Origin: a virus
Direction: 5' to 3' (one strand)
Length of the DNA stretch: 12,343 nucleotides
Virus genome (UHGV): UHGV-0377305
Under the pieces are notes generated by a model. That model ran no database searches, was not told where the DNA came from, and saw only the letters and a program-made list of their open reading frames with translations. The translations under genes were made by a program, and so were the position numbers. Of this stretch, positions 1 through 12,343 are shown in pieces (positions within the stretch are counted from its first letter, which is position 1; each line of letters opens with the position of its first letter).

Positions 1-1002
1 ATCACCGAGCTGTTCAATATTGCGGGTTGGTATTTTGTAGAGCTGGGCGATTTTCCCCAGACTTTCTGACAGTTCATCAGCTGGCAGCTCAAAGGCTGTT
101 GCCGCCTTTGCTGCCGTACTGGCGAAGGCCAGCAGGTCACGTTTCTGGTCCTCCCAGCTGTCGTCAGGGTTTGCCACATTCATGCGCGCACCACCTTCAA
201 CCAGTGCGGCGAAGTCCACAGCACCGTTTTCCATTGGCAGCTGTTCACTGGCAGCTTTGATGGCATCCTGCATTTCGTAAAAACGCGCAGTGCGGTTGCC
301 ATTATCGTCACGCAGACCATTGACCTGCTTTGCCACACCTTTCATGGCATCTTCCATGCTGGTATAGCTTTTTACCGCCGCCATCACTGGCGCGCCCATT
401 GCCAGCCCTGCAGCCGTGGTGGTGGCTCCGGCTCCTGCGATGCGATCGCGCACTTCAAGCCGTCTTGAGTATTGTTCTCTGGCAGCGTTCATCCGTGCCT
501 GTTGTTCACCCAGACGTTTAAGTGCTTTTTTCTGGCCCGCCAGTGCCTGACGAGTTTCTTCGGCATTTTTCTTAAGTTCTCGCTGGGCACTACTGAGTTG
601 TCTGGTATCAATCCCTGATTCTTTAAGTGCCTGACGTTGTCTCTGGACCGCCCCCAACAAGCCGTTATAGGTCTGCTGAAGTTCCTGTACTCGTGTTTTG
701 GCCTGACTGAATAACTTTGCCTGCGCGGCGGTTGGCCTGTTAGTGGCAGCAAATTGTGTGGCGAGTTTTGCCGCCTCTTCGCGGGCTGCGTTCAGGTTGT
801 TGGCTGTTATGGCTAGTTGCGAGCGCGTCTTGCGAAATTCATCAATTCTGCCAGCCTGCTTATTCAGTTCTTTGAGGCTGTTTCGGGTATTCTGAATTGC
901 GCCAGCCAGCTCTTTCGAACTGGCCTGTGCAGCACGGAATGGGCGGGTGAGTTTGTCAACCGCATTAAGAATGACCTGCAGGCGCAGGTTATTATCACTC
1001 AT
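1..1002 (-). CDS. T: Tail tape measure protein (P2 gpT-like), N-terminal 334 codons; C-terminal part lies beyond the window start
   Basis: Minus-strand ORF opens with ATG (rc of 1000-1002) and reads MSDNNLRLQVILNAVDKLTRPF... with no stop to position 1 (1002 nt, exactly 334 codons). It sits immediately downstream of E/E' with the E' stop overlapping this ATG, as in P2. It is absent from the ORF track only because it runs off the window. Coiled-coil, Ala/Gln-rich composition fits a tape measure. Confidence 0.75.
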   Translation of the reverse strand, partial: MSDNNLRLQVILNAVDKLTRPFRAAQASSKELAGAIQNTRNSLKELNKQAGRIDEFRKTRSQLAITANNLNAAREEAAKLATQFAATNRPTAAQAKLFSQAKTRVQELQQTYNGLLGAVQRQRQALKESGIDTRQLSSAQRELKKNAEETRQALAGQKKALKRLGEQQARMNAAREQYSRRLEVRDRIAGAGATTTAAGLAMGAPVMAAVKSYTSMEDAMKGVAKQVNGLRDDNGNRTARFYEMQDAIKAASEQLPMENGAVDFAALVEGGARMNVANPDDSWEDQKRDLLAFASTAAKAATAFELPADELSESLGKIAQLYKIPTRNIEQLGD

Positions 1003-1431
1003 CGTTGGCCCCGCTTCTCTGAATCGCTTTATACCGCCATTCCAGCACTTCGGTCAGCGGCATAACGTCAGTAACGGATGGCGGCCAGTGAAAGATGGTG
1101 GCGATATCAGCCACCAGATCGTCAACCGTCAGGCTGTCGGTAAACCGGCAAGCACCGACTTCTTCAACAAAAAAGTGACAACCTCAACCGACATGGCAGT
1201 GAGATCTGCCGGGTCCATCTCTGCAATTTCCTGTGCAGTCAGTGCCGGACTGGAGATGCGGGGGATCACGGTCATCATCGCGTTCACATCCATATCCATA
1301 ATGGCCTGCAGGCGTGTACCGCGCAGCGCACCGGACTGCGGTTTACGCAGCACAATTTCGGTGATTTCTGTTTTACCGCGCTTGATGGGGGTATCCAGTT
1401 GAATAGTCTTTTCAGTCTGCTTATCGCTCAT
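995..1431 (-). CDS. gpE+E' fusion made by programmed -1 ribosomal frameshift (tail assembly chaperone, long form)
   Basis: The zero-frame codons TTT TTG inside T_TTT_TTG (minus-strand rc of 1168-1174) allow -1 slippage. The -1 frame then stays open for about 58 codons (FFVEEVGACRFTDSLTVDDLVADIATIFHWPPSVTDVMPLTEVLEWRYKAIQRSGANDE) and ends at a TGA (rc of 995-997) that overlaps the ATG of T. This is the same architecture as P2 E/E+E' and lambda G/GT. Confidence 0.65.
1129..1431 (-). CDS. E: Tail assembly chaperone gpE (P2 E-like)
   Basis: 100-aa minus-strand ORF (MSDKQTEKTIQLDTPIKRG...) between FII and T. It ends shortly after a TTTTTTG heptamer. Position and size match P2 gene E. Confidence 0.8.
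   Translation of the reverse strand: MSDKQTEKTIQLDTPIKRGKTEITEIVLRKPQSGALRGTRLQAIMDMDVNAMMTVIPRISSPALTAQEIAEMDPADLTAMSVEVVTFLLKKSVLAGLPTA
1168..1174 (-). other. Slippery heptamer T_TTT_TTG for -1 programmed frameshift (E to E')
   Basis: Plus strand reads CAAAAAA at 1168-1174, so the minus strand reads TTTTTTG in the X_XXY_YYZ register of the E reading frame. Confidence 0.65.
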
Positions 1432-1456
1432 TTTGCTGTCCTGTCAATTGGGTTCT

Positions 1457-1474
1457 GGCGCGGTATCCCGCGCC
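1457..1474 (-). other. Intergenic stem-loop between FII and E (7-bp GC stem, 4-nt loop)
   Basis: GGCGCGG-tatc-CCGCGCC on the plus strand, a perfect inverted repeat in the 54-nt FII-E spacer. No U-tract follows on the coding (minus) strand, so it is probably not a terminator. It may be an mRNA stability or processing element. Confidence 0.3.
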
Positions 1475-1485
1475 GTTCAGATATA

Positions 1486-2001
1486 TCAGAGGCCGAGGGC
1501 GTTGCGGTGCGCTTCCATCAGGTCCACACCGTCTACAATTTCCACCATGTTGATAAGGTCCACTTCATAGAGCACCTCACCATTGATGGTCAGCTTCGCG
1601 TAGCTGTTGGTACTGGTCACTTTGGTGGTGTTGCTTTCGCCCGTCTTCCACTCGCCGGAATCCACTTCTTTGTGACGTCCACGCACCACAAGCTCCACGG
1701 CCTGCACTTCCCCGGTATCGTCACGCTGGATAGAGCCGGTAAAGCGCAACTGGATACCATCCACCGTGGCTTTGCCCATCTGCTTAAACAGCAGCAGTTC
1801 AGTACCACCAATGGAAAATTCCGTATCCAGTGCGCCGTCATCCAGCCCCAGATCCACATCCACTGCACCCGGCATTCCGCCGCCGCGATACTTCTCATAT
1901 TTGCGGGTAAATTTCGGCAGCGTCAGCGACTCAACGATCCCCTGCCAGTTGTTCCCGTCATTAAACAGGTTCAGGTGTTTTAATTTGCGTGGTAAAGCCA
2001 T
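1486..2001 (-). CDS. FII: Tail tube protein (P2 gpFII-like)
   Basis: 171-aa ORF MALPRKLKHLNLFNDGNNWQG...GGGMPGAVDVDLGLDDGALD..., which closely resembles P2 FII as I recall it. It lies directly downstream of the sheath gene and has an ATG start. Confidence 0.9.
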   Translation of the reverse strand: MALPRKLKHLNLFNDGNNWQGIVESLTLPKFTRKYEKYRGGGMPGAVDVDLGLDDGALDTEFSIGGTELLLFKQMGKATVDGIQLRFTGSIQRDDTGEVQAVELVVRGRHKEVDSGEWKTGESNTTKVTSTNSYAKLTINGEVLYEVDLINMVEIVDGVDLMEAHRNALGL

Positions 2002-2010
2002 GTTGTCCCC

Positions 2011-3183
2011 TTACGCGCTGACCTGGCTGGAGAAATTAACCAGGTACTGATCGGTGATGCGCTGACGCAGCATCAGGTTTTCAAGTGGCGGCACTGGCGT
2101 GTAGTCGTAGTCGATGGTGAGTTTTCCGGCTTTCAGCGTGTCTTTGTCGTTCACCGACTCATCCAGCCAGCAATCACCACCAATGAGATAGCCCTGACTG
2201 ACCAGGCTGCGCATTTTGGCGCGGATACCCTCGATAATGTCGCGGGCCAGCGACGGATTCAGCGGTTTATCCACCGCCCACATGTGCGCTTCTGCCATCG
2301 TGTCCGTCAGCACCTGCGCCGTGCGGGTGTAGTTTTCGAAGGCAAAGAGCGGGTCATCACTCAGGCAGCGGGAACCCCAGAAGCGAAAACCGTCTTTGCG
2401 GATAAGGGTGGTGACGTCGTTCTGGTTCAGCAGTCCCGCATCGGTTGCCGGGTCCTGCAGATCCCAGAACACATCAGCAGAAATTCCGGTGACACCGTTA
2501 ACGCCCACGTTGGACAGGCTTTTGTGCCATCCGGTCTGCTCGTCAATTTTGGCGCGCAGACCAAGCGCACGGGCGGTGGCATAAGCCGTTGCTTCGGCAT
2601 TCAGCACCGTGTCCCAGCCAGTAAAGTCGGGCCAGATCAGCATTCCTTCACGCTGACTGAAGTTTTCACGGTAAGTGATTGCTTCCTGCACCGTCTTGCA
2701 ACCATACGCTGACAGGTAAGCAAATCCACGCAGGCTTTGCGCCACACTCAGCAACTCAGTAGCTACCGCCTTCGTGTCGTGACCTGGCACGCCGAGAATG
2801 CGCGGTTTAACGCCGAGCTGTGACTGGGCAGATAACAGGGCTTTCATGCCTGTTTTTTTACCTTCAGCGGTCACTGCGCCGATGATATTGGTCGTGGTTT
2901 CGTCTTCCGTTTCACCCTGCGGCACACGCACAACAATGGTCACGGGTTTTGCCTGGTCAGCGATGGCATCCAGCGAACGAGCCAGCGTGCCTGACTCACC
3001 CGCTTTACCGCTGGCAGTCAGCACATCAGTGATCAGCACGGGTTTATTAAGAGGAAACATTTTTGCATCGGCATCATCGCCCGTGCAGACCATACCCACG
3101 ATGGCGGTGCTCACCGTGGTAATGGATCGGGTGCCTTCGTTGACTTCAACAACGCGCACCCCGTGGTGGTAATCCTGAGCCAT
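2011..3183 (-). CDS. FI: Contractile tail sheath protein (P2 gpFI-like)
   Basis: 390-aa [36 protein letters not shown]...[31 protein letters not shown]...[24 protein letters not shown], matching conserved P2 FI blocks from memory. A strong SD (AGGAGG, rc of 3193-3198) lies 9 nt upstream of the ATG. Confidence 0.92.
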
Positions 3184-3259
3184 AGTGGCGAACCTCCTGA
3201 TTGGATTAGGCTTCGCCCTATGTTGAAGTGATTGTGCCTGACAAACAGCTAAGCGCAGT

Positions 3260-3277
3260 TGTACCGTTATTCACACA
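3260..3277 (-). promoter_or_regulatory. Candidate Ogr/Delta-type late promoter activator site (TGT-N12-ACA dyad) upstream of FI
   Basis: Minus strand reads TGT-GTGAATAACGGT-ACA (plus-strand tgt at 3260-3262 and aca at 3275-3277, 12-nt spacer), centred about 85 nt upstream of the FI ATG, in the pin-FI intergenic region. P2 late promoters carry this dyad near -55. The motif is short and can occur by chance. Confidence 0.4.
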
Positions 3278-3325
3278 AAATGACGGTATTTGTCTGCTTT
3301 CAGGGATAATCAAAATAAAGCTGAT

Positions 3326-3892
3326 TCAGGGAGATTTATTGTTCTTATTTGCCGGAAATTTTCGATAAATGGTAGAAACGCCTACATCAAAAATCAGTGC
3401 AATACGCTGTCTTGATTCTCCGTCCTCGAGTAAACGCCCAATCTGTGCCCACTGTTCGCTGGTCAACTTAGGACGGCGTCCACCTACTCTGCCTTTAGCA
3501 CGAGCTGCAGCCAGCCCCGCCCTGGTACGTTCAACTATCAGTTCGCGTTCCATTTCAGCCAGGGCACCCATGACATGAAAAAAGAAACGGCCCATTGGGG
3601 TGCTGGTATCAATACTGTCAGTCAGGCTTCGGAAATTCACGCCACGCTGGCGCAGCTCTTCTATCAGCGTAACAAGATGCCGCATACTGCGCCCCAGTCT
3701 GTCCAGCTTCCAGACAACCAGCGTGTCTCCTGCCGATAGTGTCCTGAGCAGCTTTTTCAGCCCCGGTCTGTCGGACTTGGTGCCACTGATTTTATCCTCA
3801 AAAATCCGCTCACATCCCGCACAGTTCAGTGCATTGCGTTGCAAATCGGTGTTCTGGTCATTTGTTGACACGCGTACATAGCCAATAAGCAT
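3326..3892 (-). CDS. Serine site-specific DNA invertase (Gin/Pin/Cin/Hin family)
   Basis: ORF MLIGYVRVSTNDQNTDLQRNAL...DRLGRSMRHLV...GRFFFHVMGALAEMERELIVERTRAGL... carries the resolvase/invertase catalytic N-terminus (the serine in YVRVSTNDQ) and a C-terminal HTH. The track ORF starts two codons earlier (MIM...); the second ATG matches the paralog's start. Confidence 0.9.
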   Translation of the reverse strand: MLIGYVRVSTNDQNTDLQRNALNCAGCERIFEDKISGTKSDRPGLKKLLRTLSAGDTLVVWKLDRLGRSMRHLVTLIEELRQRGVNFRSLTDSIDTSTPMGRFFFHVMGALAEMERELIVERTRAGLAAARAKGRVGGRRPKLTSEQWAQIGRLLEDGESRQRIALIFDVGVSTIYRKFPANKNNKSP

Positions 3893-3947
3893 GATCATCC
3901 CCCTGAATAAAAACCGGAGATGATGCCAGTTAGCCGTTATCTCTGCA

Positions 3948-3973
3948 TTTTCATAAACGTCGGTTTACGGGAA
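3948..3973. other. gix/cix-like 26-bp crossover site A (inverted partner of site B)
   Basis: TTTTCATAAACG-TC-GGTTTACGGGAA. The inner half, extended to a 17-mer CGGTTTACGGGAAACGG (3961-3977), is the exact reverse complement of 5370-5386. The site resembles the Mu gix consensus (TTCCTGTAAACCGAGGTTTTGGATAA, from memory). It lies between the invertase start and the Sv cassette. Confidence 0.6.
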
Positions 3974-4327
3974 ACGGTAAATAAGGCCGCTGATGCCCTG
4001 CCATCGGGGGGAACCGCCGTGGCAGCAAACAGACTCGCCACCCCAAGAAATATTAATGGTGTTCCTTTCGACGGGACGCGGGATATAAACATTACGTCAG
4101 GAATGCCGGAATCAACGGCCAATCAGCGTTATGTTACAGGGGTAAGACTGGGAGCGCAGGCATTAAGCGGCGTACTGGAATATAATTACTCCCTGTCATC
4201 AGGAAATGTGATTACCGGTTTTAAGACTGACGGAGACTGGGAAATGCGTGGTGGTGATGACCGTGTTTATTACAGACAGATACAATATTGTATTAATGGG
4301 AATTGGGTATCCGCTGCAAGTATTTAA
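3962..4327 (+). CDS. Tail-fibre C-terminal variable cassette (Sv); no constant N-terminal part attached in this orientation
   Basis: The open frame begins inside crossover site A (GLRETVNKAADALPSGGTAVAANRLATPRNINGVPFDGTRDINITSGM...). The first roughly 50 residues are homologous to the start of the opposite cassette, then the two diverge. The only in-frame ATGs upstream (3920, 3923) have no usable SD spacing. Reported as a cassette, not an independent gene. Confidence 0.6.
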   Translation, partial: GLRETVNKAADALPSGGTAVAANRLATPRNINGVPFDGTRDINITSGMPESTANQRYVTGVRLGAQALSGVLEYNYSLSSGNVITGFKTDGDWEMRGGDDRVYYRQIQYCINGNWVSAASI

Positions 4328-4447
4328 TTAACGGCTCATGGCGTACGGCAGGCAGCGCCTGATATATGCGTTATCTCAGACAACCCCTGTCCGTATATAG
4401 CGATAGTATTATTCCTGTTTTTATCATTGATTCACATGGTGATGTTT

Positions 4448-4969
4448 ATGCAACTGATTAATGTTAAACGATATTACCCGGAAAATACCCTCTATGGTAA
4501 TGATGTACAGTATTTTCAGAGTGAAGATGGTAAGGATTTCTACGAGTCCCTGCCATTATTCACAAAAAAATATAAACTTTGTATAACACCTGACAGCGGC
4601 ATTATCTGCTCAATATCACAGGACGCTTCGGCGCTGTATCCTGCGGGGTTCTCTGTGGTTGAAGTCGACGAACTCCCTGAAGGTGCTGATATTTCGGGTA
4701 ACTGGAAGTTTGATAATGGCGTGATCTCCCGTATTCCGGTTAACTACGCAAGAAAACTGGAAGCAATGCGCCAGTCATATCTTAATCAGGCATATGAAAA
4801 AATTAATGACTGGAGAACAGAATTACAGCTGGGCACCATCAGTGATGAAGACAGAGCCGCACTTACCCGATGGATGGCATACATCAGTCAGGTGAAAAAA
4901 ATGGAACTACCAGCGATTAAAAACAAAGCTGAATTTGACGACATTAAATGGCCGGAGAAGCCTGAATAA
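4448..4969 (+). CDS. Tail fibre assembly protein (Tfa/gpG/U-like chaperone)
   Basis: ORF MQLINVKRYYPEN...SEDGKDFYE...GFSVVEV...DWRTELQLGTISDEDRAALTRWMAYISQV... has the conserved Tfa layout and the C-terminal Tfa motif. It lies immediately downstream of Sv on the same strand. The track ORF starts at an upstream TTG (4427); the ATG at 4448 is the more likely start. Confidence 0.8.
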   Translation: MQLINVKRYYPENTLYGNDVQYFQSEDGKDFYESLPLFTKKYKLCITPDSGIICSISQDASALYPAGFSVVEVDELPEGADISGNWKFDNGVISRIPVNYARKLEAMRQSYLNQAYEKINDWRTELQLGTISDEDRAALTRWMAYISQVKKMELPAIKNKAEFDDIKWPEKPE

Positions 4970-4972
4970 CGT

Positions 4973-4996
4973 AAAGGGTGCTTATCGCACCCTTTT
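4973..4996. terminator. Bidirectional intrinsic terminator between convergent tfa and Sv'
   Basis: Perfect 9-bp stem AAAGGGTGC-ttatc-GCACCCTTT followed by T on the plus strand, with a T-rich stretch on the minus strand. It sits in the 34-bp gap between the tfa stop (4969) and the Sv' stop (5004). Confidence 0.6.
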
Positions 4997-5003
4997 CCTT
5001 TAA

Positions 5004-5385
5004 TCAGACGGATGAAACTGTGCGCCAGGCATTACCGATATATATCTGCACCGGACGGTAATAAACGCCTCCGATATTATCGGCTGAATTTCTCCCGGTC
5101 TCCTGCACGTTAATACCTGAAAGCATACAACCGGAAGGCGCGCCATAACTCCAGGACATTTCATTACCTCCGGGTGAATGGTAACTCTGGGCACCAAGCT
5201 GAACGTTGCGAACGTATTTGTTATCAGCAGCAGCTTCGGTCATACCGGAGGTAATGTTGATATCCTGCGTTCCGTCAAAGGGAACACCATTAATTGTGTG
5301 GGCATTTGCCAGCCTGTTCGCGGCAACGGCCGTTCCGTTCGATGGCAGGGCATTCGCCGCCCTGTTTACCGTTTCCCGTAAACCG
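5004..5385 (-). CDS. Alternative tail-fibre C-terminal variable cassette (Sv'), start-less
   Basis: The minus-strand frame opens just inside site B, immediately after an in-frame TGA, and reads NLGLRETVNRAANALPSNGTAVAANRLANAHTINGVPFDGTQDINITSGMTEAAADNKYVRNVQLGAQSYHSPGGNEMSWSYGAPSGCMLSGINVQETGRNSADNIGGVYYRPVQIYIGNAWRTVSSV. Its N-terminal part is homologous to Sv and the C-terminus is different. No start codon or SD is at the cassette head. Confidence 0.6.
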
Positions 5386-5399
5386 AGGTTTCAGGGATG
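5374..5399. other. gix/cix-like 26-bp crossover site B
   Basis: TTCCCGTAAACC-GA-GGTTTCAGGGAT, matching Mu gixL (as recalled) at about 20 of 26 positions. It lies in inverted orientation to site A, 54 bp upstream of the second invertase ATG. Confidence 0.65.
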
Positions 5400-5452
5400 C
5401 CGTATATCTGCTTTAAAAAGCATTTCCACCTCTTTTTAAGGAAGGTAAATAC

Positions 5453-6013
5453 ATGCTGATTGGCTATATACGCGTATCAACAAATGACCAGAACACAGGT
5501 TTACAAAGAAATGCGCTGGAATGTGCAGGATGTGAGCAGATTTTTGAAGACAAAATGAGTGGTAAAACGACGCAGCGGCCGGGACTGAAGCGGGCACTGA
5601 AGAAACTAAAACCCGGCGACACACTGATGGTCTGGAAACTGGACAGGCTGGGGCGCAGTATGCGCCACCTTGTTGCGCTGACAGATGAATTACAGCAACA
5701 GGGGATAAATTTTCGTAGTCTTACTGACAACATTGATACGTCAACCCCCATGGGGCGCTTCTTTTTTCACATAATGGGTGCGCTGGCAGAAATGGAGCGT
5801 GAATTGATTGTCGAACGGACACGGGCTGGTCTTGCTGCTGCCCGTGAAAGGGGACGAACCGGCGGCAGACCCCGTCGTCTCACGCAGGAACAATACGAGC
5901 AGGTCGGGCGTTTACTGGCCGGGGGTGTCAGCCGAAGACAGGTGGCACTTATTTTTGATATCGGCCTTTCAACCCTTTATCGTTATTATCCTGCGAGCGT
6001 TTCGGAAAAATAA
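5453..6013 (+). CDS. Serine site-specific DNA invertase (Gin/Pin/Cin/Hin family), second paralog
   Basis: ORF MLIGYIRVSTNDQNTGLQRNALECAGCEQIFEDK...DRLGRSMRHLV...GRFFFHIMGALAEMERELIVERTRAGLAAARERG..., with an SD AAGGAAGG upstream. It is about three-quarters identical to the 3326-3892 invertase by eye (not computed) and is transcribed away from the cassette region. Confidence 0.9.
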   Translation: MLIGYIRVSTNDQNTGLQRNALECAGCEQIFEDKMSGKTTQRPGLKRALKKLKPGDTLMVWKLDRLGRSMRHLVALTDELQQQGINFRSLTDNIDTSTPMGRFFFHIMGALAEMERELIVERTRAGLAAARERGRTGGRPRRLTQEQYEQVGRLLAGGVSRRQVALIFDIGLSTLYRYYPASVSEK

Positions 6014-6112
6014 GACGCTCTCTTTGTTGGGCCTTTACTGAATTAACGCAAAATGGCGTTTATCGGTCTGTGGATATGATAATTCTGTTTATTCAGGAAC
6101 AGGCTGATTATT

Positions 6113-8152
6113 ATGACGTCCAAATGGGTTCAACTATCATCAATGCCCGGAAACTTTACTGTTAAAGTTTCCGGTGGTACAGCGGCATTTCTTGAGGCTC
6201 CCTTTCCTCCGGCCGAAACAAAAGGAGGAATGACATTTGCTGACTGTCTCATCAGTTTTAATACACGGGATTGCCTGTGGGTAAGGCCAGTATCCGGTGA
6301 TCCGAGCGTGGAAATTACCGGTGCGGGTATTGGTGCTGTCATTCCGTTAAGTGCTGATGTTGCCGGTACTGCTGAACCGTCAGACTGGGATAATGCTGAA
6401 ACACATACCCGTCCGTCAGGAAATGAAACTGCTTCCAGCTCCCCTTCCTGGTATTACGTGGTGGTTCTTGCTGGTCAGTCAAACGGGATGGCCTACGGTG
6501 AAGGTCTGCCGCTGCCGGAGACATATGACCACCCCGAACCGCGTATTATGCAGTTAGCCCGTCGCAGTACAGTCACGCCGGGAGGTAAAGCCTGTCAGTA
6601 TAACGACATCATTCTGGCCGACCACTGTCTGCATGATGTGCAGGATATGAGTGGAAAAAATCACCCGAAAGCGGATGTGGCTAAAGGGCAATATGGCACC
6701 GTGGGTCAGGGGCTTCACATTGCCAAAAAACTGCTGCCGTTTATTCCGGCAGATGCGGGGATTCTGCTGGTTCCCTGCTGCCGTGGTGGTTCTGCATTCA
6801 CGGCGGGTGCTGACGGCACGTACAGTGACAGCACGGGTGCTTCAGAGGACTCAGCCCGCTGGGGTGTGGATAAGCCGCTGTATAAGGACTTAATCAGCCG
6901 GACAAAAGCGGCACTGGCGAAGAACCCGAAAAACCGCCTGCTTGCTGTGGTGTGGATGCAGGGCGAGTTTGATATTGATGCGAAGCCGACGGAGCATTCC
7001 GCGCTGTTTCTGGCGATGGTGGAAAAATTCCGCGCAGACCTGGCTGAACAGGCGGAACAGTGTACCGGTGGCAGTGCTGCTGGCGTTCCGTGGATTTGTG
7101 GCGATACCACGTATTTCTGGAAACAGAAAAACGAACAGGCATACCAGGCAATCTATGACGGCTACAAAAATAAAACAGATAAAAACATTCATTTCGTCCC
7201 ATTAATGACAGATGAAAATGGCGCGAATGTACCCACCAACAATCCGACAGAAGACCCGGATATTGAATCCATTGGTTATTACGGCTCAACGTGGCGTAAC
7301 AGTGCCGCCACCTGGACATCTGCGGGCCGGGCCAGCCATTTCAGTTCATGGGCACGTCGTGGGATTATTTCCGACCGTCTGGCCACGGCTGTTCTGACTC
7401 ATGCAGGGCGAACCACAGTAAAAGCCGATGTTCCATCTTCTGAAACTGAAGCACCAGTGCCGTCACCTTCAGAAACTGAAGCAGTAACCACAACACTGCT
7501 GTCTTACCGTGTCAGTGAGTCAGAAGGAAATCTGAAAGCCCAGGGCTGGGAGCCGGCTGGCGGTAAAGCTGAAATTATCAGTGATGCAGGAGGCACAGGT
7601 GGTAAGGCAATGAAACTGACCAAGGAAACAGGTAAATCATCCTGGTATCTGGATCATGATGCCGGTACTGGTGCTGAACTGCTGAAAAATGGTGGTTTAA
7701 TCAGTTGTCGTTTTAAAGTACCTGGCGACCTGGTGGCAAACCAGTATGTCATGGCGCTTTACTGGCCGGTTTCCTCTCTGCCGCAGGGTGTCACCCTGAC
7801 AGGGGATGCAGGGAATAATCTGCTGGCATCGTTCTACATCCAGACAGACGCAAAAGACCTGAATGTGATGCACCACAATGCAAAAGTGGCAACAAATAAC
7901 CAGAAACTGGGAACCTTTGGTGTATTTGATAATGAATGGCATACGCTGGCCTTCCGTTTTGCAGGAAATAACAGCCTTCAGGTTATTCCGGTTATTGATG
8001 GTCAGGATGGTGCCGCGTTTACCCTGACGCAGTCACCAGTAGGAACTTTCCCGGTGGACAAACTCCGCGTAACGGATATCACCAAAAATGCAACTTACCC
8101 GGTGCTGATTGACAGCATTGTGGTGGAAGTGAAAAAAGCGGTAACAGAATAA
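6113..8152 (+). CDS. Putative SGNH/sialate O-acetylesterase-domain protein (NanS / prophage NanS-p-like) with a C-terminal probable carbohydrate-binding domain
   Basis: 679-aa ORF. The central region carries VVVLAGQSNGMAYGEGLPLP...LLVPCCRGGSAFT...VVWMQGEFD...WICGDTTYFW, i.e. the GQSN block and downstream blocks typical of sialate O-acetylesterase (SASA/DUF303) domains. A Ser/Thr/Pro/Glu linker (SETEAPVPSPSETEA) precedes an approximately 230-aa C-terminal domain. Function is assigned from motifs only. Confidence 0.6.
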   Translation: MTSKWVQLSSMPGNFTVKVSGGTAAFLEAPFPPAETKGGMTFADCLISFNTRDCLWVRPVSGDPSVEITGAGIGAVIPLSADVAGTAEPSDWDNAETHTRPSGNETASSSPSWYYVVVLAGQSNGMAYGEGLPLPETYDHPEPRIMQLARRSTVTPGGKACQYNDIILADHCLHDVQDMSGKNHPKADVAKGQYGTVGQGLHIAKKLLPFIPADAGILLVPCCRGGSAFTAGADGTYSDSTGASEDSARWGVDKPLYKDLISRTKAALAKNPKNRLLAVVWMQGEFDIDAKPTEHSALFLAMVEKFRADLAEQAEQCTGGSAAGVPWICGDTTYFWKQKNEQAYQAIYDGYKNKTDKNIHFVPLMTDENGANVPTNNPTEDPDIESIGYYGSTWRNSAATWTSAGRASHFSSWARRGIISDRLATAVLTHAGRTTVKADVPSSETEAPVPSPSETEAVTTTLLSYRVSESEGNLKAQGWEPAGGKAEIISDAGGTGGKAMKLTKETGKSSWYLDHDAGTGAELLKNGGLISCRFKVPGDLVANQYVMALYWPVSSLPQGVTLTGDAGNNLLASFYIQTDAKDLNVMHHNAKVATNNQKLGTFGVFDNEWHTLAFRFAGNNSLQVIPVIDGQDGAAFTLTQSPVGTFPVDKLRVTDITKNATYPVLIDSIVVEVKKAVTE

Positions 8153-8158
8153 AAAAAA

Positions 8159-8187
8159 TCCCGCCGGTCATGATATGGCTGGCGGGA
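8159..8187. terminator. Hairpin after the esterase gene (A8 tract upstream; U-tract only on the minus strand)
   Basis: TCCCGCCGG-(11-nt loop)-CTGGCGGGA, a 9-bp stem with one G-U pair. On the plus strand it is preceded by AAAAAAAA and not followed by a T-run. On the minus strand it is followed by T8. It may act bidirectionally. Confidence 0.3.
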
Positions 8188-8301
8188 GCTACCTAACCCA
8201 TAAAGGAAAATAAAAATACTCCCGAAGGAGTAGTTACCAGTCACTTCGTCATGTTTTTACCCGATAACGAATTATGTAGTCAATATCAAAGGTAAGGTTA
8301 T

Positions 8302-8484
8302 ATGACATTCGTTCATACAATGCTGCTTTATTTCTGCGCTGTGGTCAGTGCGTTATATCTGGTGAGCGGCGGTTATAAGGTCATCAGAAATTATATTCGC
8401 CGCAAAATTGATGACGCAGCAGCCGAAAAGCTCAGTAAAACAGCACAGGCACCATCATCCCCAAACGACCCGACCCCGCTCTGA
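8302..8484 (+). CDS. Hypothetical small membrane protein (60 aa, one predicted TM helix)
   Basis: ATG start with AAGG upstream. Hydrophobic N-terminus MLLYFCAVVSALYLVSGG followed by a basic and polar tail. No family recognised. Confidence 0.5.
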   Translation: MTFVHTMLLYFCAVVSALYLVSGGYKVIRNYIRRKIDDAAAEKLSKTAQAPSSPNDPTPL

Positions 8485-8519
8485 TAACGGGGCAATATAC
8501 CTGCAAAAGGAGAATATTC

Positions 8520-8765
8520 ATGCCAGAGATTAAAGGCACGGTTACTGAAGAGCTTGTCAAACAGGCACTTTATTCTGAAGAAGTGAACCGCGTGCTGAAG
8601 GCGCAGGTTCGCAAGGATTTTGAGGCACAAATCGACGCATATGTTGATGAAGTGCTGGCCCGAATGGTTGGCCGTTCTCCGGCTGAAAACAGCACGGAAA
8701 ATGCTCCTCAACCCGTAGAGCAACCAGAGCCGGTTCAGCCCGGAACTGACGGTACTATGATGTAA
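8520..8765 (+). CDS. Hypothetical protein (81 aa, acidic Pro/Glu-rich C-terminus)
   Basis: Strong SD AAGGAG 8 nt upstream of the ATG, and a perfect hairpin immediately downstream. No family recognised. Confidence 0.6.
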   Translation: MPEIKGTVTEELVKQALYSEEVNRVLKAQVRKDFEAQIDAYVDEVLARMVGRSPAENSTENAPQPVEQPEPVQPGTDGTMM

Positions 8766-8774
8766 CAATACCGA

Positions 8775-8805
8775 CCGGCAGGTTTCCCTGCCGGGTGAAT
8801 TTGTT
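8775..8805 (+). terminator. Probable intrinsic terminator after the 81-aa ORF
   Basis: Perfect 8-bp stem CCGGCAGG-tttc-CCTGCCGG followed by the T-rich GTGAATTTGTT, 10 nt after the stop codon. Confidence 0.45.
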
Positions 8806-9119
8806 AATGCACGTTTTGTGTATTTTCCCTCTGGGGAGAACAGGCAGGGCATATCAGCATCCTGAAACAGGAAGCATTTTTTGGTTTGTATGTCTTGCCA
8901 TTTTGAGATCGAGAACGGCGATAGATGAGCTGTAAGGGAGTCTTACAGGCAGGGTAAACAGGCTCTTTATCCATGATAAAGATCTCCTTTTTATGCATCT
9001 CTGCTTTACAGGAGACCGGGGAATATCATAGGATACGCCACGAGCTCGAAGTAAAGCATTGATGCAAAATTGTCTAAATCGGCCCAGAATAGTTCGCGCT
9101 ATCTGGGTCGCCCTTTATG

Positions 9120-9155
9120 TATGTAGTATCCCATTGATTTGAAACATACTACATA
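9120..9155. promoter_or_regulatory. 10-bp inverted repeat with 16-bp spacer (candidate operator)
   Basis: TATGTAGTAT-(16 nt)-ATACTACATA in the AT-rich region about 230 bp upstream of com. Confidence 0.25.
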
Positions 9156-9197
9156 TACGCACAATCCTACCTTCACTGTATAAAAAGTCAATAAAAT

Positions 9198-9340
9198 GAT
9201 CATTTTATGATCGTTTTCACCACCTAACTCTTCGTTTTCTTTAAGTAAATAATCACCGCCCTGAATCATTGTTGATGACTTTTCAATCTATTTGTTGTAT
9301 CAATTAAACAAACCGAATCGATCGTTTTTGTCGATCGATT
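9198..9340. promoter_or_regulatory. GATC (Dam-site) cluster with palindromes upstream of com, a candidate methylation-sensitive control region
   Basis: Four GATC sites in about 140 bp (9198, 9209, 9320, 9333). Two sit in the palindrome AAAATGATCATTTT and its neighbour, and two in the 9-bp-arm inverted repeat AATCGATCG-tttttgt-CGATCGATT (9316-9340), about 45 bp upstream of the com ATG. This recalls the GATC/OxyR region of the Mu mom promoter. Confidence 0.35.
9293..9310 (+). promoter_or_regulatory. Candidate Ogr/Delta-type late-activator dyad (TGT-N12-ACA) upstream of com
   Basis: TGT-TGTATCAATTAA-ACA, centred about 82 nt upstream of the com ATG. This is the same dyad geometry as upstream of FI. 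Chance occurrence is possible. Confidence 0.3.
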
Positions 9341-9383
9341 GCATGAGAAAGGCATCAACAACAAAGCAGGAGGTTATGCGGCC

Positions 9384-9569
9384 ATGTATCGAAACATACG
9401 GTGCCGACACTGCAATAAGCTACTGGCACGGGCCAGTTTCAGTTATCTGGAAGTAAAATGTCCGCGCTGCAAAACCCTCAATCAAATCACATCTCAGAGC
9501 GCCACAGAGCACCCCACATACACAAGGAAATCCTGCCGTGGGGAACAAGAAACATTACTTTCAGTCTGA
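9384..9569 (+). CDS. com: Com-like zinc-ribbon translational activator (Mu Com family)
   Basis: 61-aa ORF MYRNIRCRHCNKLLARASFSYLEVKCPRCKTLNQITSQSATEHPTY... with the Com-type CxxC...CPRC zinc ribbon and an EHPT motif, as recalled for Mu Com. AGGAGG lies 9 nt upstream of the ATG. The 3' end overlaps the start of the downstream gene by 32 nt, as com overlaps mom in Mu. The track ORF begins at an upstream TTG (9339). Confidence 0.75.
   Translation: MYRNIRCRHCNKLLARASFSYLEVKCPRCKTLNQITSQSATEHPTYTRKSCRGEQETLLSV
9512..9543 (+). promoter_or_regulatory. Possible translation-inhibiting stem that sequesters the MTase GTG start (candidate Com target)
   Basis: CCCCAC (9512-9517) can pair with GTGGGG (9538-9543). 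The start codon lies in the 3' arm and the SD in the 20-nt loop. This is analogous in position to the stem-loop in mom mRNA that Com unwinds. The stem is only 6 bp. Confidence 0.3.
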
Positions 9570-10590
9570 TAAGTCACTAACCTATGGTTCAGTATGCAGT
9601 GGTATTGAAGCTGCGACAGTAGCCTGGAGCAATCTTGGCTGGAAAGCCAGATGGTTCAGTGAAATAGAGGACTTCCCGTCAACACTTCTTTCATATCGCT
9701 GGCCCCATATACCAAATCTTGGTGATATGGCTTTGCTTGCGCCTCGTATCAGGGATGGGCTTATTGAAGCACCAGATATTCTTGTAGGTGGAACTCCGTG
9801 TCAGGCATTCAGTATGTCAGGCAAACGAAAAGGCCTTTCAGATCCACGGGGGCAGTTAACACTGTCTTTTGTTGAACTGGCGAATCAGATAGATACCGTT
9901 CGGGCATCGCTCAATAAATCCCCCTCAATAATCGTATGGGAAAACGTCACAGGAGTTTTAAGTAGCCATGACAATGCATTCGGTCATTTTCTTGGTGCGC
10001 TGGCCGGAGCAGGTTGCGCATTACAGCCAGCAAGGAAAAGATGGGCAAACGCTGGTGTTGTGTCTGGACCATCGCGTATCGTCGCCTGGCGAGTACTTGA
10101 TGCCCAATATTTCGGAGTCGCCCAGGCTCGCAGAAGAGTGTTTGTTGTGGCAAGTGCTGGAAAAAGGCTCGATCCCGGAAAGGTATTATTTGAGTTCCCG
10201 CCTGTGTCGCAGGGCGATAAAAACTATTACGGAAAGAAGAAAAAATCCGAATCCCTTCTTGATCAAGGCATTGAAGGAAAATTGCACCGATATTGCCTTG
10301 AAGCATTGCCAAAACGAACAGGCACAGTAATAGCTGGCTATAACGGAACAACTAACCAGGACATGACTATGTCTGGTGGGCTCATAGTTGAAAGAGCGCC
10401 ATATTCAAGGGTTCGTAGGTTGACGCCAACCGAATGCGAGAGGCTACAAGGTTTTCCCGATGGATATACAGATATTCCATGGAAAAATTCATCTCCAGCT
10501 CATCGTTATAAGGCCATTGGAAATTCAATGCCTGTACCGGTCATGAAATGGATTGGTCGAAGAATACAGGAAGCGTTAAACGAAGTTTAA
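9538..10590 (+). CDS. DNA (cytosine-5)-methyltransferase
   Basis: 350-aa ORF with canonical C5-MTase blocks: GGTPCQAFSMSG (PCQ catalytic motif IV), IIVWENVTG (ENV motif VI), QARRRVFVVA (motif VIII), RRLTPTECERLQGFPDGYT and AIGNSMPVPVMKWI (C-terminal motifs). The N-terminal GSVCSGIEAA stands in place of motif I. GTG start at 9538 with AAGGAAA 8-9 nt upstream; no alternative start exists in frame after the upstream stop at 9454. Confidence 0.88.
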   Translation: MGNKKHYFQSDKSLTYGSVCSGIEAATVAWSNLGWKARWFSEIEDFPSTLLSYRWPHIPNLGDMALLAPRIRDGLIEAPDILVGGTPCQAFSMSGKRKGLSDPRGQLTLSFVELANQIDTVRASLNKSPSIIVWENVTGVLSSHDNAFGHFLGALAGAGCALQPARKRWANAGVVSGPSRIVAWRVLDAQYFGVAQARRRVFVVASAGKRLDPGKVLFEFPPVSQGDKNYYGKKKKSESLLDQGIEGKLHRYCLEALPKRTGTVIAGYNGTTNQDMTMSGGLIVERAPYSRVRRLTPTECERLQGFPDGYTDIPWKNSSPAHRYKAIGNSMPVPVMKWIGRRIQEALNEV

Positions 10591-10608
10591 ACCTAAGCAA
10601 AAGACATT

Positions 10609-10914
10609 ATGAAGTTGGTTTTTGTGCCGTTAAAAGATGTCTTTAAGGAGTGCAAAGGAAAGCGCCAATTTAGTATCAAAAAAGATGCTTATCGGCGCTT
10701 TTCATCGGTATCAAATGAAATGCAAATCTGTATCAAAAAAATCGCCGCGCTATATACCCGAAAAGAAAACGTATTTACCAGTTGGGTGATGCGATTGCTG
10801 ATTGTTGTAAGTCTCGCCTGGACGGGGTGGGCTATTACCCTGGTCTTTTATCTACTGACCGTTATTGCCTTCTGGATCACCCGTAATCAGATGGCGCAAC
10901 AGGTAGCAGCATGA
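10609..10914 (+). CDS. Hypothetical protein; the C-terminal hydrophobic part may be a LysA-like remnant fused to unrelated N-terminal sequence
   Basis: 101-aa ORF. The N-terminal half is AT-rich, hydrophilic and lacks a clear SD. The C-terminal roughly 40 aa (WVMRLLIVVSLAWTGWAITLVFYLLTVIAFWI) is membrane-like and ends overlapping the lysB start (ATGA), the position lysA occupies in P2. Confidence 0.4.
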   Translation: MKLVFVPLKDVFKECKGKRQFSIKKDAYRRFSSVSNEMQICIKKIAALYTRKENVFTSWVMRLLIVVSLAWTGWAITLVFYLLTVIAFWITRNQMAQQVAA

Positions 10915-11339
10915 ACCGGTTACTGCTGGTTGTGCTGGCGTTATTACTGGCGGCGCTGGGCTGGCAGACGTGGCGGCTGGCTGATGCCAGCCAGACCATC
11001 AGCACGCAGGCAGACGAGCTGCAGAGCAAAAGCCAGGCACTGGCAAAGAGCAACAGCCAGCTTATCAGCCTGTCTATTCTGACTGAAACCAATAACCGGG
11101 AGCAGGCGCGGCTCTATGCCGAAGCAGAACAGACCAGCGCGCTGCTGAGACAACGACAACACCGGATCGAGGAACTGAAACGTGAGAACGAGGATTTACG
11201 CCGCTGGGCTGATACTCCTTTGCCTGCTGACATTATCCGGCTGCGGGAACGCCCCACACTCACCGGAGGTGCAGCTTACCGTCAGTGGTTGTCCGCGAGT
11301 GACGCCGTGTCGGCTGGATCAGGCAGCGCCGCGCACTAA
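10911..11339 (+). CDS. lysB: LysB (Rz-like inner-membrane spanin)
   Basis: 142-aa ORF with an N-terminal TM helix (LLLVVLALLLAALGW) followed by a coiled-coil, Gln/Glu/Arg-rich periplasmic region. It lies upstream of R and S with lysC embedded in the +1 frame, the P2 arrangement. Confidence 0.75.
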   Translation: MNRLLLVVLALLLAALGWQTWRLADASQTISTQADELQSKSQALAKSNSQLISLSILTETNNREQARLYAEAEQTSALLRQRQHRIEELKRENEDLRRWADTPLPADIIRLRERPTLTGGAAYRQWLSASDAVSAGSGSAAH

Positions 11340-11472
11340 CGGTGATCTGAATGCGTTGCTGGATGAAACGGAGGCCGCCTGGGCGGTCTGTGCAGACAAA
11401 GTGGATATGATTATTGCGTGTCAGGAGCGAAACAGTGAACAAACCACAATCCCTGCGCCACGCCCTCAATAA
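11182..11472 (+). CDS. lysC: LysC (Rz1-like outer-membrane lipoprotein spanin), embedded in and extending beyond lysB
   Basis: 96-aa ORF in a different frame from lysB, with signal peptide and lipobox (LLCLLTLSG-C) and a Pro-rich mature part. GTG start. Confidence 0.7.
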   Translation: MRTRIYAAGLILLCLLTLSGCGNAPHSPEVQLTVSGCPRVTPCRLDQAAPRTNGDLNALLDETEAAWAVCADKVDMIIACQERNSEQTTIPAPRPQ

Positions 11473-11866
11473 AGCAGTGCCTTATGTCCGCAATAACCCG
11501 GACAAACTGCATCTGTTTGTGGATAACGGTTCGCTGGTTGCCACGGGGGCCAGCTCCATGTCGTGGGAGTACCGTTACACCCTGAACGCGGTGATTGAGG
11601 ATTTCAGCGGCGACCAGAATCTGCTGATGGCCCCGGTTTTGCTGTGGCTGCGTGATAACCAGCCCGATGCCATCAATAACCCGGCGTTACGGGAAAAACT
11701 ATTCACCTTTGAGGTGGATATTCTGCGCAACGATGTCTGTGATATCAGCCTTAACCTGCAACTGACGGAGCGTGTGCTGGTCAGCACTGACGGTAGTGTG
11801 TCGAGCGTTGAAGCTATAGCGGAACCTGATGAACCTGAAGAAATGTGGACGGTGAAACGTGGCTGA
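11435..11866 (+). CDS. R: Tail completion protein R (P2 gpR-like)
   Basis: VNKPQSLRHALNKAVPYVRNNPDKLHLFVDNGS...LNAVIEDFSGDQNLLMAPVLLWLRDNQPD...LQLTERVLVS resembles P2 gpR as recalled. The likely start is GTG 11435 with AGGAG 8 nt upstream; the track ORF starts at TTG 11414. Confidence 0.85.
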   Translation: MNKPQSLRHALNKAVPYVRNNPDKLHLFVDNGSLVATGASSMSWEYRYTLNAVIEDFSGDQNLLMAPVLLWLRDNQPDAINNPALREKLFTFEVDILRNDVCDISLNLQLTERVLVSTDGSVSSVEAIAEPDEPEEMWTVKRG

Positions 11867-12305
11867 ACTGCAGAAAGTGGACGACTGGCTGAGTGCCTTG
11901 CTGGCGAATCTGGAACCAGCCGCCAGAAGCCGCATGATGCGCCAGCTGGCGCAGGAACTGCGCCGGACACAGCAGCAGAACATCAGGATGCAACGCAATC
12001 CTGATGGCAGCAGCTATGAACCGAGGCGAGTAACAGCACGCAGTAAAAAAGGCCGTATCAAACGGCAGATGTTTACAAAACTTCGCACCACAAAATACCT
12101 GAAAACCGCCGCCAGCGAGGATTCTGCCAGCGTGCAGTTTGAAGGTAAGGTGCAGCGCATTGCCCGCGTTCACCATTATGGCCTGCGTGATCGCGTCAGC
12201 CGCAAAGGACCGGAGGTCCGTTACGCAGAGCGTCGCCTTCTGGGTGTAAATGATGATGTTGAGGCAATGACCCGCGACATGATTCTGCAATGGTTGGCGG
12301 GGTGA
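11859..12305 (+). CDS. S: Tail completion protein S (P2 gpS-like)
   Basis: MAELQKVDDWLSALLANLEPAARSRMMRQLAQELRRTQQQNIRMQRNPDGS... resembles P2 gpS. The GTG start overlaps the R stop (GTGGCTGA), which suggests translational coupling. Confidence 0.85.
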   Translation: MAELQKVDDWLSALLANLEPAARSRMMRQLAQELRRTQQQNIRMQRNPDGSSYEPRRVTARSKKGRIKRQMFTKLRTTKYLKTAASEDSASVQFEGKVQRIARVHHYGLRDRVSRKGPEVRYAERRLLGVNDDVEAMTRDMILQWLAG

Positions 12306-12343
12306 TTTTTGTATCAGCAGTGATACAAGTTGCAGCACTGCCG

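Follow-up and report, generated by a model that had tools for sequence, protein, structure and literature searches.

The open reading frame (ORF) at positions 6113 to 8152 of UHGV virus genome UHGV-0377305 most likely specifies a NanS-p-family sialate 9-O-acetylesterase of the prophage type, belonging to a Mu-like phage lineage of the Sakai Sp18 type. The whole stretch analysed, 12,343 nucleotides (nt) long, is referred to here as the window, and coordinates are counted from its first letter. Judged from sequence, the 679-amino-acid (aa) ORF is a real, three-domain esterase with the catalytic and C-terminal domains that define NanS-p; DUF1737 and the lambdoid late-operon location, by which NanS-p is also recognized, were absent. 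The kind of enzyme is already known. What appears to be new is an N-terminal domain unlike that of the Shiga-toxin (Stx) phage enzymes, together with the Mu-like context. To our knowledge, NanS-p esterases have been discussed almost only as accessory genes of lambdoid and Stx phages that let enterohaemorrhagic Escherichia coli (EHEC) use O-acetylated mucin sialic acids. A search of the searchable literature returned no paper dealing with both nanS-p and Mu-like phages, and earlier descriptions of the variant may exist.

Pfam searches placed SASA (PF03629) on residues 116-313 (E=5.9e-12, 46.1 bits against a cutoff of 24.8) and DUF6645 (PF20350) on residues 524-642 (E=2.1e-68). Residues 104-428 matched PDB entry 3PT5, the NanS (YjhS) of E. 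coli O157:H7 (E=1.6e-118), residues 459-674 matched 6YP6, deposited as 'NanS-p' (E=4.3e-111), and the phrog_143 profile spanned residues 62-677. These matches confirmed the core of a preliminary description, made from the letters of the window, which had proposed a NanS-like SGNH/SASA sialate O-acetylesterase-domain protein with extra domains at both ends; the C-terminal one is DUF6645. The start codon was backed by the conservation of residues 1-10 in 60%-identical homologues. A five-part division of the protein was drawn from the alignment of homologues and from structure prediction.

6113..8152, plus strand: NanS-p-like sialate O-acetylesterase coding sequence, ATG start, stop codon at 8150-8152, 679 aa (ORF list, translation, Pfam, PDB)
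6113..6349, plus strand: N-terminal domain, residues 1-79, predicted all-beta, cupin-like small barrel, in place of DUF1737
6350..6448, plus strand: linker 1, residues 80-112, low-complexity and predicted disordered, with a predicted local distance difference test score (pLDDT) <50 at residues 80-110
6449..7411, plus strand: SGNH type II / SASA catalytic domain, residues 113-433 (3PT5 alignment, conserved residues)
7412..7486, plus strand: linker 2, residues 434-458, Pro/Ser/Glu/Thr-rich (alignment)
7487..8149, plus strand: lectin-like jelly-roll domain (DUF6645), residues 459-679 (6YP6, PF20350)

The GQSN block noticed in the preliminary description was located at residues 121-124. In the alignment with 3PT5, Q122-S123 fell on Gln18-Ser19 of NanS and H409 fell on His301, and all three residues, the catalytic serine included, were invariant in an alignment of 9 diverse homologues. 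A passage of PMC9063846 that cites the NanS structure paper gives Ser19 as the nucleophile, Gln18 as an oxyanion residue and His301 as the base. The ratio of nonsynonymous to synonymous substitution rates (dN/dS) was 0.11-0.12 in the catalytic domain and 0.11-0.26 across the catalytic and lectin domains, which indicated purifying selection. A full-length AlphaFold model, built on a 9-sequence alignment, was set aside: its mean pLDDT was 52, and the catalytic and C-terminal domains have solved structures.

The catalytic domain is homologous to chromosomal NanS (YjhS) over its full length and keeps the Gln-Ser pair and the His. Chromosomal NanS, in contrast, is a single-domain enzyme of 326 aa that belongs to the NanR regulon, whereas the prophage protein adds an N-terminal and a lectin-like C-terminal domain. 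Two architectures were found in the database, one of DUF1737, SASA and DUF6645 (~640-650 aa), which is the NanS-p type of lambdoid and Stx phages, and one that has no DUF1737 and carries the present N-terminus (669-691 aa). The sequence of the window protein is abundant and is annotated as 'sialate O-acetylesterase' or 'DUF6645 domain-containing protein'. Linker 2 of the window protein contains a 30-base-pair (bp) duplication (7438-7482), by which PSSETEA occurs twice; the common 669-aa alleles are without it. Tandem Repeats Finder, run on the linker, did not report this duplication, which was read straight from the sequence.

Mu-like prophage context and kinship to lambdoid nanS-p

Comparison by blastn gave ~77% nt identity to Stx phages, beginning at window ~6451-6467 (residue ~113) and ending just before the stop codon. 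At the protein level the esterase was 74-81% identical to the NanS-p of EHEC lambdoid prophages over residues ~113-679, and the kinship to these enzymes that had been suggested beforehand was upheld. The catalytic domain was closer to the Stx-phage enzyme (81% aa identity) than to that of the other Mu-like type (73%). Because homology sets in at residue ~113 and the catalytic domain is nearer to the Stx enzyme, the N-terminal domain is taken to stay with the phage type, with exchange between Mu-like and lambdoid phages confined to the catalytic and lectin part.

The window protein and the lambdoid/Stx-phage NanS-p share the SASA and DUF6645 domains, the DUF1378 and DUF826 genes downstream, a hairpin after the stop codon and carriage by a prophage. 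They differ at the N-terminus, which is DUF1737 in the lambdoid proteins and an unrelated all-beta domain of ~80 residues here. They also differ in their carriers, lambdoid phages in the one case and a transposable Mu-like myovirus in the other. The Stx-phage gene belongs to a late operon antiterminated by Q and has its place between stx and the holin gene, as in the Stx1 phage SH2026Stx1 (stx, small ORF, esterase, DUF1378, DUF826, holin), whereas the present gene lies after gin and before com/mom.

A mixed form was observed in protein P0065 (L010 608-2539), which begins with DUF1737 and resembles the lambdoid proteins over the first third of its catalytic domain. The remainder is nearly identical to the window esterase, and Mu-like DUF1378, DUF826, com and mom lie downstream. 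P0065 comes from a draft genome, on a contig that ends 607 bp upstream, and is possibly a real lambdoid/Mu-like recombinant or possibly an assembly chimera.

Sequence matches identify window 3969-10754 as the right end of a Mu-like (Sp18-type) prophage. The genes that mark it on either side of the esterase module are as follows.

5453..6013, plus strand: gin-type serine invertase gene (Resolvase and HTH_7), 99 bp upstream of the esterase gene
9384-9569, plus strand: com (phrog Com matches), overlapping the C5 methyltransferase gene by 32 nt
9538-10590, plus strand: C5 cytosine DNA methyltransferase gene (PF00145), in place of mom

The invertase gene, which the preliminary description had correctly placed directly upstream of the esterase gene, was 71% identical to Mu gin at the nt level and was present in all Mu-like contexts compared. 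The com and C5 methyltransferase genes are the final pair ahead of position 10754, where the Mu-like DNA ends on the right; this boundary was set by matches that end there beside differing host genes. In E. coli FHI_NMBU_11, 98%-identical DNA comes after genes annotated as tail and baseplate genes of Mu type; the end of that prophage, beside ttdB, corresponds to window 10754. In GenBank, LC727881 and LC727895 carry this DNA under the label 'inserted Bacteriophage Mu-like phage'. The Mu-like prophage Sp18 of strain Sakai is predicted to be intact, and its DNA is efficiently packaged (PMC2669165).

The right end of phage Mu (gin, com, mom) is alike in having a tail fibre, an invertible segment, gin, com, a modification gene and the transposon end beyond. 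In Mu, com encodes a zinc-ribbon translational activator. Unlike the window, Mu has no module of esterase, DUF1378 and DUF826 between gin and com, and only gin matches the window there; it also has mom where the window has a C5 cytosine methyltransferase gene. In E. coli O157:H7 FRIK2455, com and mom stand at the position of com and the C5 methyltransferase gene, after the same esterase slot. Paired GATC sites seen upstream in the window (~9207-9222 and ~9318-9336) call to mind the promoter region of mom, which is under Dam regulation.

Contigs encoding the identical 679-aa protein were spread over 71 index blocks of the collection, and eight contigs were examined. On these the esterase gene is preceded by genes for tape measure, DNA circularization protein, gp45, gp46, gp47/J, gp48, tail fibre, Tfa and invertase, and it is followed in all eight by DUF1378, DUF826, com (where called) and the C5 methyltransferase gene. 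The contigs continue into different chromosomal genes and represent eight insertion sites, as expected of a transposing phage. Tfa was present in both orientations among the eight, and the invertible segment therefore flips in nature.

DNA of the N-terminal domain (at least 95% identity) was detected in 205 genomes out of 5426 complete ones of E. coli; many of the 205 belong to E. coli that produce Shiga toxin (STEC), of serotypes O157:H7, O111, O103 and O91. A lineage with a 65%-identical esterase (the P0082 type, 689 aa, which includes Shigella sonnei) occupies the same slot, and a Salmonella relative lies downstream of an invertase gene in a Mu-like prophage. The module was kept in all Sp18-type, P0082-type and Salmonella Mu-like prophages examined. 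These comparisons indicate that the module is accessory relative to Mu, yet an old, conserved resident of the Mu-like lineage in Escherichia, Shigella and Salmonella. The preliminary description had taken the gene as cargo of a P2-like element, unusual in that location and suggestive of horizontal acquisition. The comparisons do not bear this out: the esterase and its upstream invertase belong to the Mu-like right end, the identical protein occupies the same slot at eight sites, and the arrangement is shared with the 65%-identical lineage and with Salmonella, as in an old association and not a recent acquisition.

Proposed action of the enzyme and its N-terminal domain

The lambdoid NanS-p alleles of strains EDL933 and O104:H4 are active esterases on the 9-O-acetylated form of 5-N-acetyl neuraminic acid (Neu5,9Ac2), take O-acetyl groups off mucin glycans and enable growth on Neu5,9Ac2 (PMC8065619; PMC10462455). 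The C-terminal domain of NanS-p is a lectin-like jelly roll that has been proposed to bind carbohydrate (PMC10462455; PMC8065619). Because of the level of identity to these enzymes and the intact catalytic residues, we infer the same chemistry as the best account of the window protein. Ser123 would attack the 9-O-acetyl ester in Neu5,9Ac2, whether this is free sialic acid or part of a mucin glycan, with His409 acting as the base, and the C-terminal lectin-like domain may direct the enzyme to glycans. The translation, read by eye, has no hydrophobic signal-like stretch at its N-terminus, which points to release upon phage lysis; the enzyme would be set free when the phage lyses the cell. De-O-acetylated sialic acids would then become usable by sialidases and the Nan pathway, with a probable gain for the lysogen population.

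Several points weigh against this account. The substrate specificity would be carried over from enzymes of 74-81% identity. The homologue in phage phi24B is a capsid decoration protein, and the picture of a released host-fitness enzyme may be incomplete. The hairpin that follows the stop codon (see below) is no canonical plus-strand terminator, and promoter predictions upstream of the esterase gene were not above chance, with 5 promoter-like sites in the region against 5.8 expected.

DUF1737 (PF08410), which the preliminary description had named for the domain search, gave no match in the esterase even at E<=1, and the N-terminus was not alignable with DUF1737-type sequences. The predicted fold of residues 1-79 is all-beta, whereas DUF1737 of phi24B gp84 consists of one helix and three strands. 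In the comparison with a 60%-identical homologue the N-terminal domain had a dN of 0.29 and a saturated dS. The Salmonella protein, whose N-terminal domain is 29% identical, keeps the fusion to the catalytic domain. These data argue that the N-terminal domain is a real protein domain under constraint. By structure prediction its nearest neighbours are uncharacterised phage proteins of ~90 aa, and it weakly matched phrog_4772, a profile of 79 positions (E=0.006). A HMMER search of 1.8 billion representative proteins found no standalone homologue of the domain, only NanS-like fragments; one low-complexity repeat protein among the matches was discounted. A word-index homologue search with the N-terminal 107 residues likewise returned only fragments of the same protein. 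Among 50,697 phage records the domain occurred only in two Stx-prophage records, each with an inserted Mu-like prophage.

These properties bear on a different reading, in which the enzyme is displayed on the virion. In phi24B, the NanS-p protein gp84 decorates the capsid: its DUF1737 plugs into the hexon centres, and the protein is processed later (bioRxiv 10.64898/2026.04.10.717836). By analogy, the N-terminal domain described here might anchor the esterase to a Mu-like capsid or tail, and the esterase and lectin domains might act from the particle surface on mucus glycans, in adherence or penetration. We consider this possible, though doubtful; it is compatible with the sialate 9-O-acetylesterase described above and extends it. 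In its favour, DUF1737 of gp84 is a capsid-binding domain (bioRxiv 10.64898/2026.04.10.717836), and in the Mu-like proteins only the N-terminal domain is swapped, tracking the Mu-like phage type at 60% and 29% identity across Escherichia, Shigella and Salmonella, and it is the catalytic and lectin part that undergoes recombination with lambdoid copies. Purifying selection on the N-terminal domain, the disordered linker behind it, its phage-protein structural neighbours and the weak phrog_4772 match point the same way. Such support for a Mu-like anchor is circumstantial, consisting of co-variation, selection, linker and neighbours, and the failure of HMMER to find a standalone homologue counts against it. 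The two Stx-prophage records being the domain's only occurrences among phage records, no virion proteome covers it. Of the two linkers, linker 1 alone carries an SSP-type motif (ASSSP) like the proposed processing motif of gp84; the motif is not conserved in the P0082 type, and the gp84 'SSP' autoprocessing motif was dropped as a clue. In a wider form of this idea, which we hold just as tentatively, NanS-p proteins may be modular virion-display proteins that share an esterase/lectin cassette and fit each particle type by a swappable N-terminal domain.

Tailspike-borne SGNH esterases of some phages deacetylate surface polysaccharide to expose a receptor. The window enzyme might by the same logic strip O-acetyl groups from O-antigen or from a polysialic acid capsule and expose a receptor for infection, which we regard as improbable. 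The esterase gene adjoins the tail-fibre and invertible host-range region, residues 210-311 weakly match phrog_25867, annotated as a tail protein (E=4e-5), and the idea has been raised for NanS-p in a review (PMC8065619). The nearest characterised relatives, however, work on Neu5,9Ac2 and mucin glycans, and the catalytic domain is ~70% identical to that of the catabolic chromosomal NanS, as judged from an alignment inspected by eye. Searches of Pfam and PHROG found no likeness to tail-fibre or baseplate attachment domains, and the phi24B homologue sits on the capsid and not on the tail. No tail-fibre or receptor-binding protein, an alternative raised in the preliminary description, matched better than NanS.

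Downstream module and P2-like flanks

Comparison of the prophages places the esterase gene first in a conserved three-gene module with DUF1378 and DUF826. The elements downstream of the esterase gene and the two crossover sites of the invertible segment were mapped as follows.

8159..8187, no strand assigned: GC-rich hairpin with a 13-bp stem, directly 3' of the stop codon, preceded by an A-run
8302..8484, plus strand: gene for a DUF1378 small membrane protein, 60 aa (phrog_494, E=3.5e-34)
8520..8765, plus strand: gene for a DUF826 protein, 81 aa (phrog_311, E=5.7e-30)
3956..3981, no strand assigned: hybrid 26-bp gix/cix-type crossover site, outer half P2-like and adjoining the P2-like invertase gene, inner half Mu-like, at the left Mu-like boundary
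5372..5397, no strand assigned: right gix-type crossover site of the Mu-like invertible segment (sequence, inverted repeat, alignment)

The DUF1378 protein was 53% identical to its Stx-phage homologue at the same position, and the DUF826 protein was 47% identical to its Stx-phage homologue over 51 aligned residues. DUF1378 has a single hydrophobic helix at its N-terminus, then a basic stretch, and always accompanies the esterase. The order in Stx phages is DUF1378, DUF826, holin, which puts DUF1378 two genes upstream of the holin gene. A role of DUF1378 in the membrane, or in a lysis-related release of the esterase, is conceivable.

The hairpin has no T-run after its stem on the plus strand, and on the minus strand it reads as a stem followed by a T-run. 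The 101-nt stretch around it had a folding energy of -30.8 kcal/mol (z = -4.2). In a four-way alignment the A-run and the hairpin were kept in the Mu-like variants and in SH2026Stx1. Because it is kept in the Stx phage, the hairpin is part of the inherited nanS-p module and not a fresh insertion scar. The guanine-plus-cytosine (GC) content was 40% at 8153-8301, 41% at 8766-9338 and 51% in the esterase ORF, equal to that of the adjoining gin gene.

A recent moron with its own boundaries, inserted in a P2-like tail and invertase region, is very improbable: P2-like tail genes and an invertase are present in the window, the module is absent from Mu, and AT-rich DNA and a hairpin lie on the flanks, but the neighbouring invertase and all DNA at 3969-10754 are Mu-like, the arrangement is kept with the 65%-identical esterase and in Salmonella, the GC content is that of gin, the hairpin is common to Stx phages, and no promoter/terminator pair bounds the gene. 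The AT-rich region and the hairpin that the preliminary description had read as signs of a moron both exist; the hairpin came with the module and does not mark a fresh moron boundary, and the GC comparison with the neighbours that it had called for set the esterase gene level with gin. The P2-like tail genes are likewise real, at 1-3183, and they lie on the opposite strand and belong to a different element.

Window 1-3981, read in reverse, is a 97% match to Cartapus, a P2-like phage (Peduoviridae). The P2-like minus-strand genes there are those for tape measure, E, tube and sheath, plus a P2-like invertase gene, and the plus strand of window 10755-12343 encodes lysB, R and S of P2 type. The P2-like DNA, 1-3968 and 10755-12343, is a prophage distinct from the Mu-like one. 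Homology to Cartapus stops at 3981 and resumes after 10754, and the DNA between is Mu-like. The Mu-like match begins at 3956 and so shares 26 bp with the Cartapus match that runs to 3981. In a four-way alignment of the window left site, the Mu-like gixL, the Cartapus cixR and the window right site, the switch from Cartapus to Mu-like sequence fell at the centre of the crossover site. Inverted repeats of 84 nt (3955-4038 and 5308-5391) bound the segment 3982-5371, which lies between two outward-facing invertase genes that are 76% similar.

The gene order of Cartapus (lysB, R, S ... H, invertible segment, invertase, sheath, tube) makes a two-step history the simplest explanation of the P2-like flanks. 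First, a P2-like prophage would have received the Mu-like phage by transposition shortly upstream of lysB, with the right end of the Mu-like DNA at 10754. An invertase would then have inverted ~14 kb by joining the left site of the Mu-like phage with the right site of the P2-like one. The P2/Mu arrangement of the window was found in no complete E. coli genome, and the eight contigs examined for the identical esterase also lacked it. The invertible segment holds the C-terminal part of a fibre gene (3920-4327, plus strand) and a tail-fibre assembly gene (4427-4969, plus strand), and in the other orientation an alternative tail-fibre C-terminus (5004-5243, minus strand). The hybrid left junction severs the fibre C-terminal ORF from the constant N-terminal part, and the Mu-like prophage therefore cannot make a whole fibre in this configuration.

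No terminator was found between gin and the esterase gene. The gin-esterase spacer contains, within 6030-6112, the blocks TGAATT..CGCAAAA and TATG.T.A.TCTGTTTA, kept across lineages with ~65%-identical esterases, and their conservation suggests a regulatory element. A sigma-70 promoter in this 99-bp spacer was rejected, as the spacing of the conserved blocks is unfit for a -35/-10 pair. The esterase gene could be transcribed with gin, from a regulated promoter of its own, or late.

A minus-strand ORF at 8391-8852 was rejected as a gene; it had no family matches and overlaps DUF1378 and DUF826. The AT-richer stretch 8766-9338 contains only a broken minus-strand ORF (8804-8998), whose intact counterpart of 154 aa is annotated as hypothetical in O157:H7 FRIK2455 and as frameshifted in FHI_NMBU_11. 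Hairpins with T-runs on the minus strand lie downstream of this ORF at 8159-8187 and 8217-8232, beyond DUF826 and DUF1378, and could be terminators of its transcript.

Implications for the NanS-p family

These comparisons point to a second conserved NanS-p architecture, which resides in Mu-like prophages; ~4% of the complete E. coli genomes have it, including many STEC. Where nanS-p alleles are counted per strain by DUF1737 or by a lambdoid context, copies will be missed. The strict pairing of N-terminal domain and phage type, taken with the 2026 finding that DUF1737 is a capsid anchor, yields a testable hypothesis on the N-terminal domains. If the enzymes are displayed on virions, de-O-acetylation of mucin glycans would be a function of the virion surface. 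Lambdoid phages and a transposable myovirus would each have been selected for it independently, and it would be more than a fitness factor of the lysogen alone.

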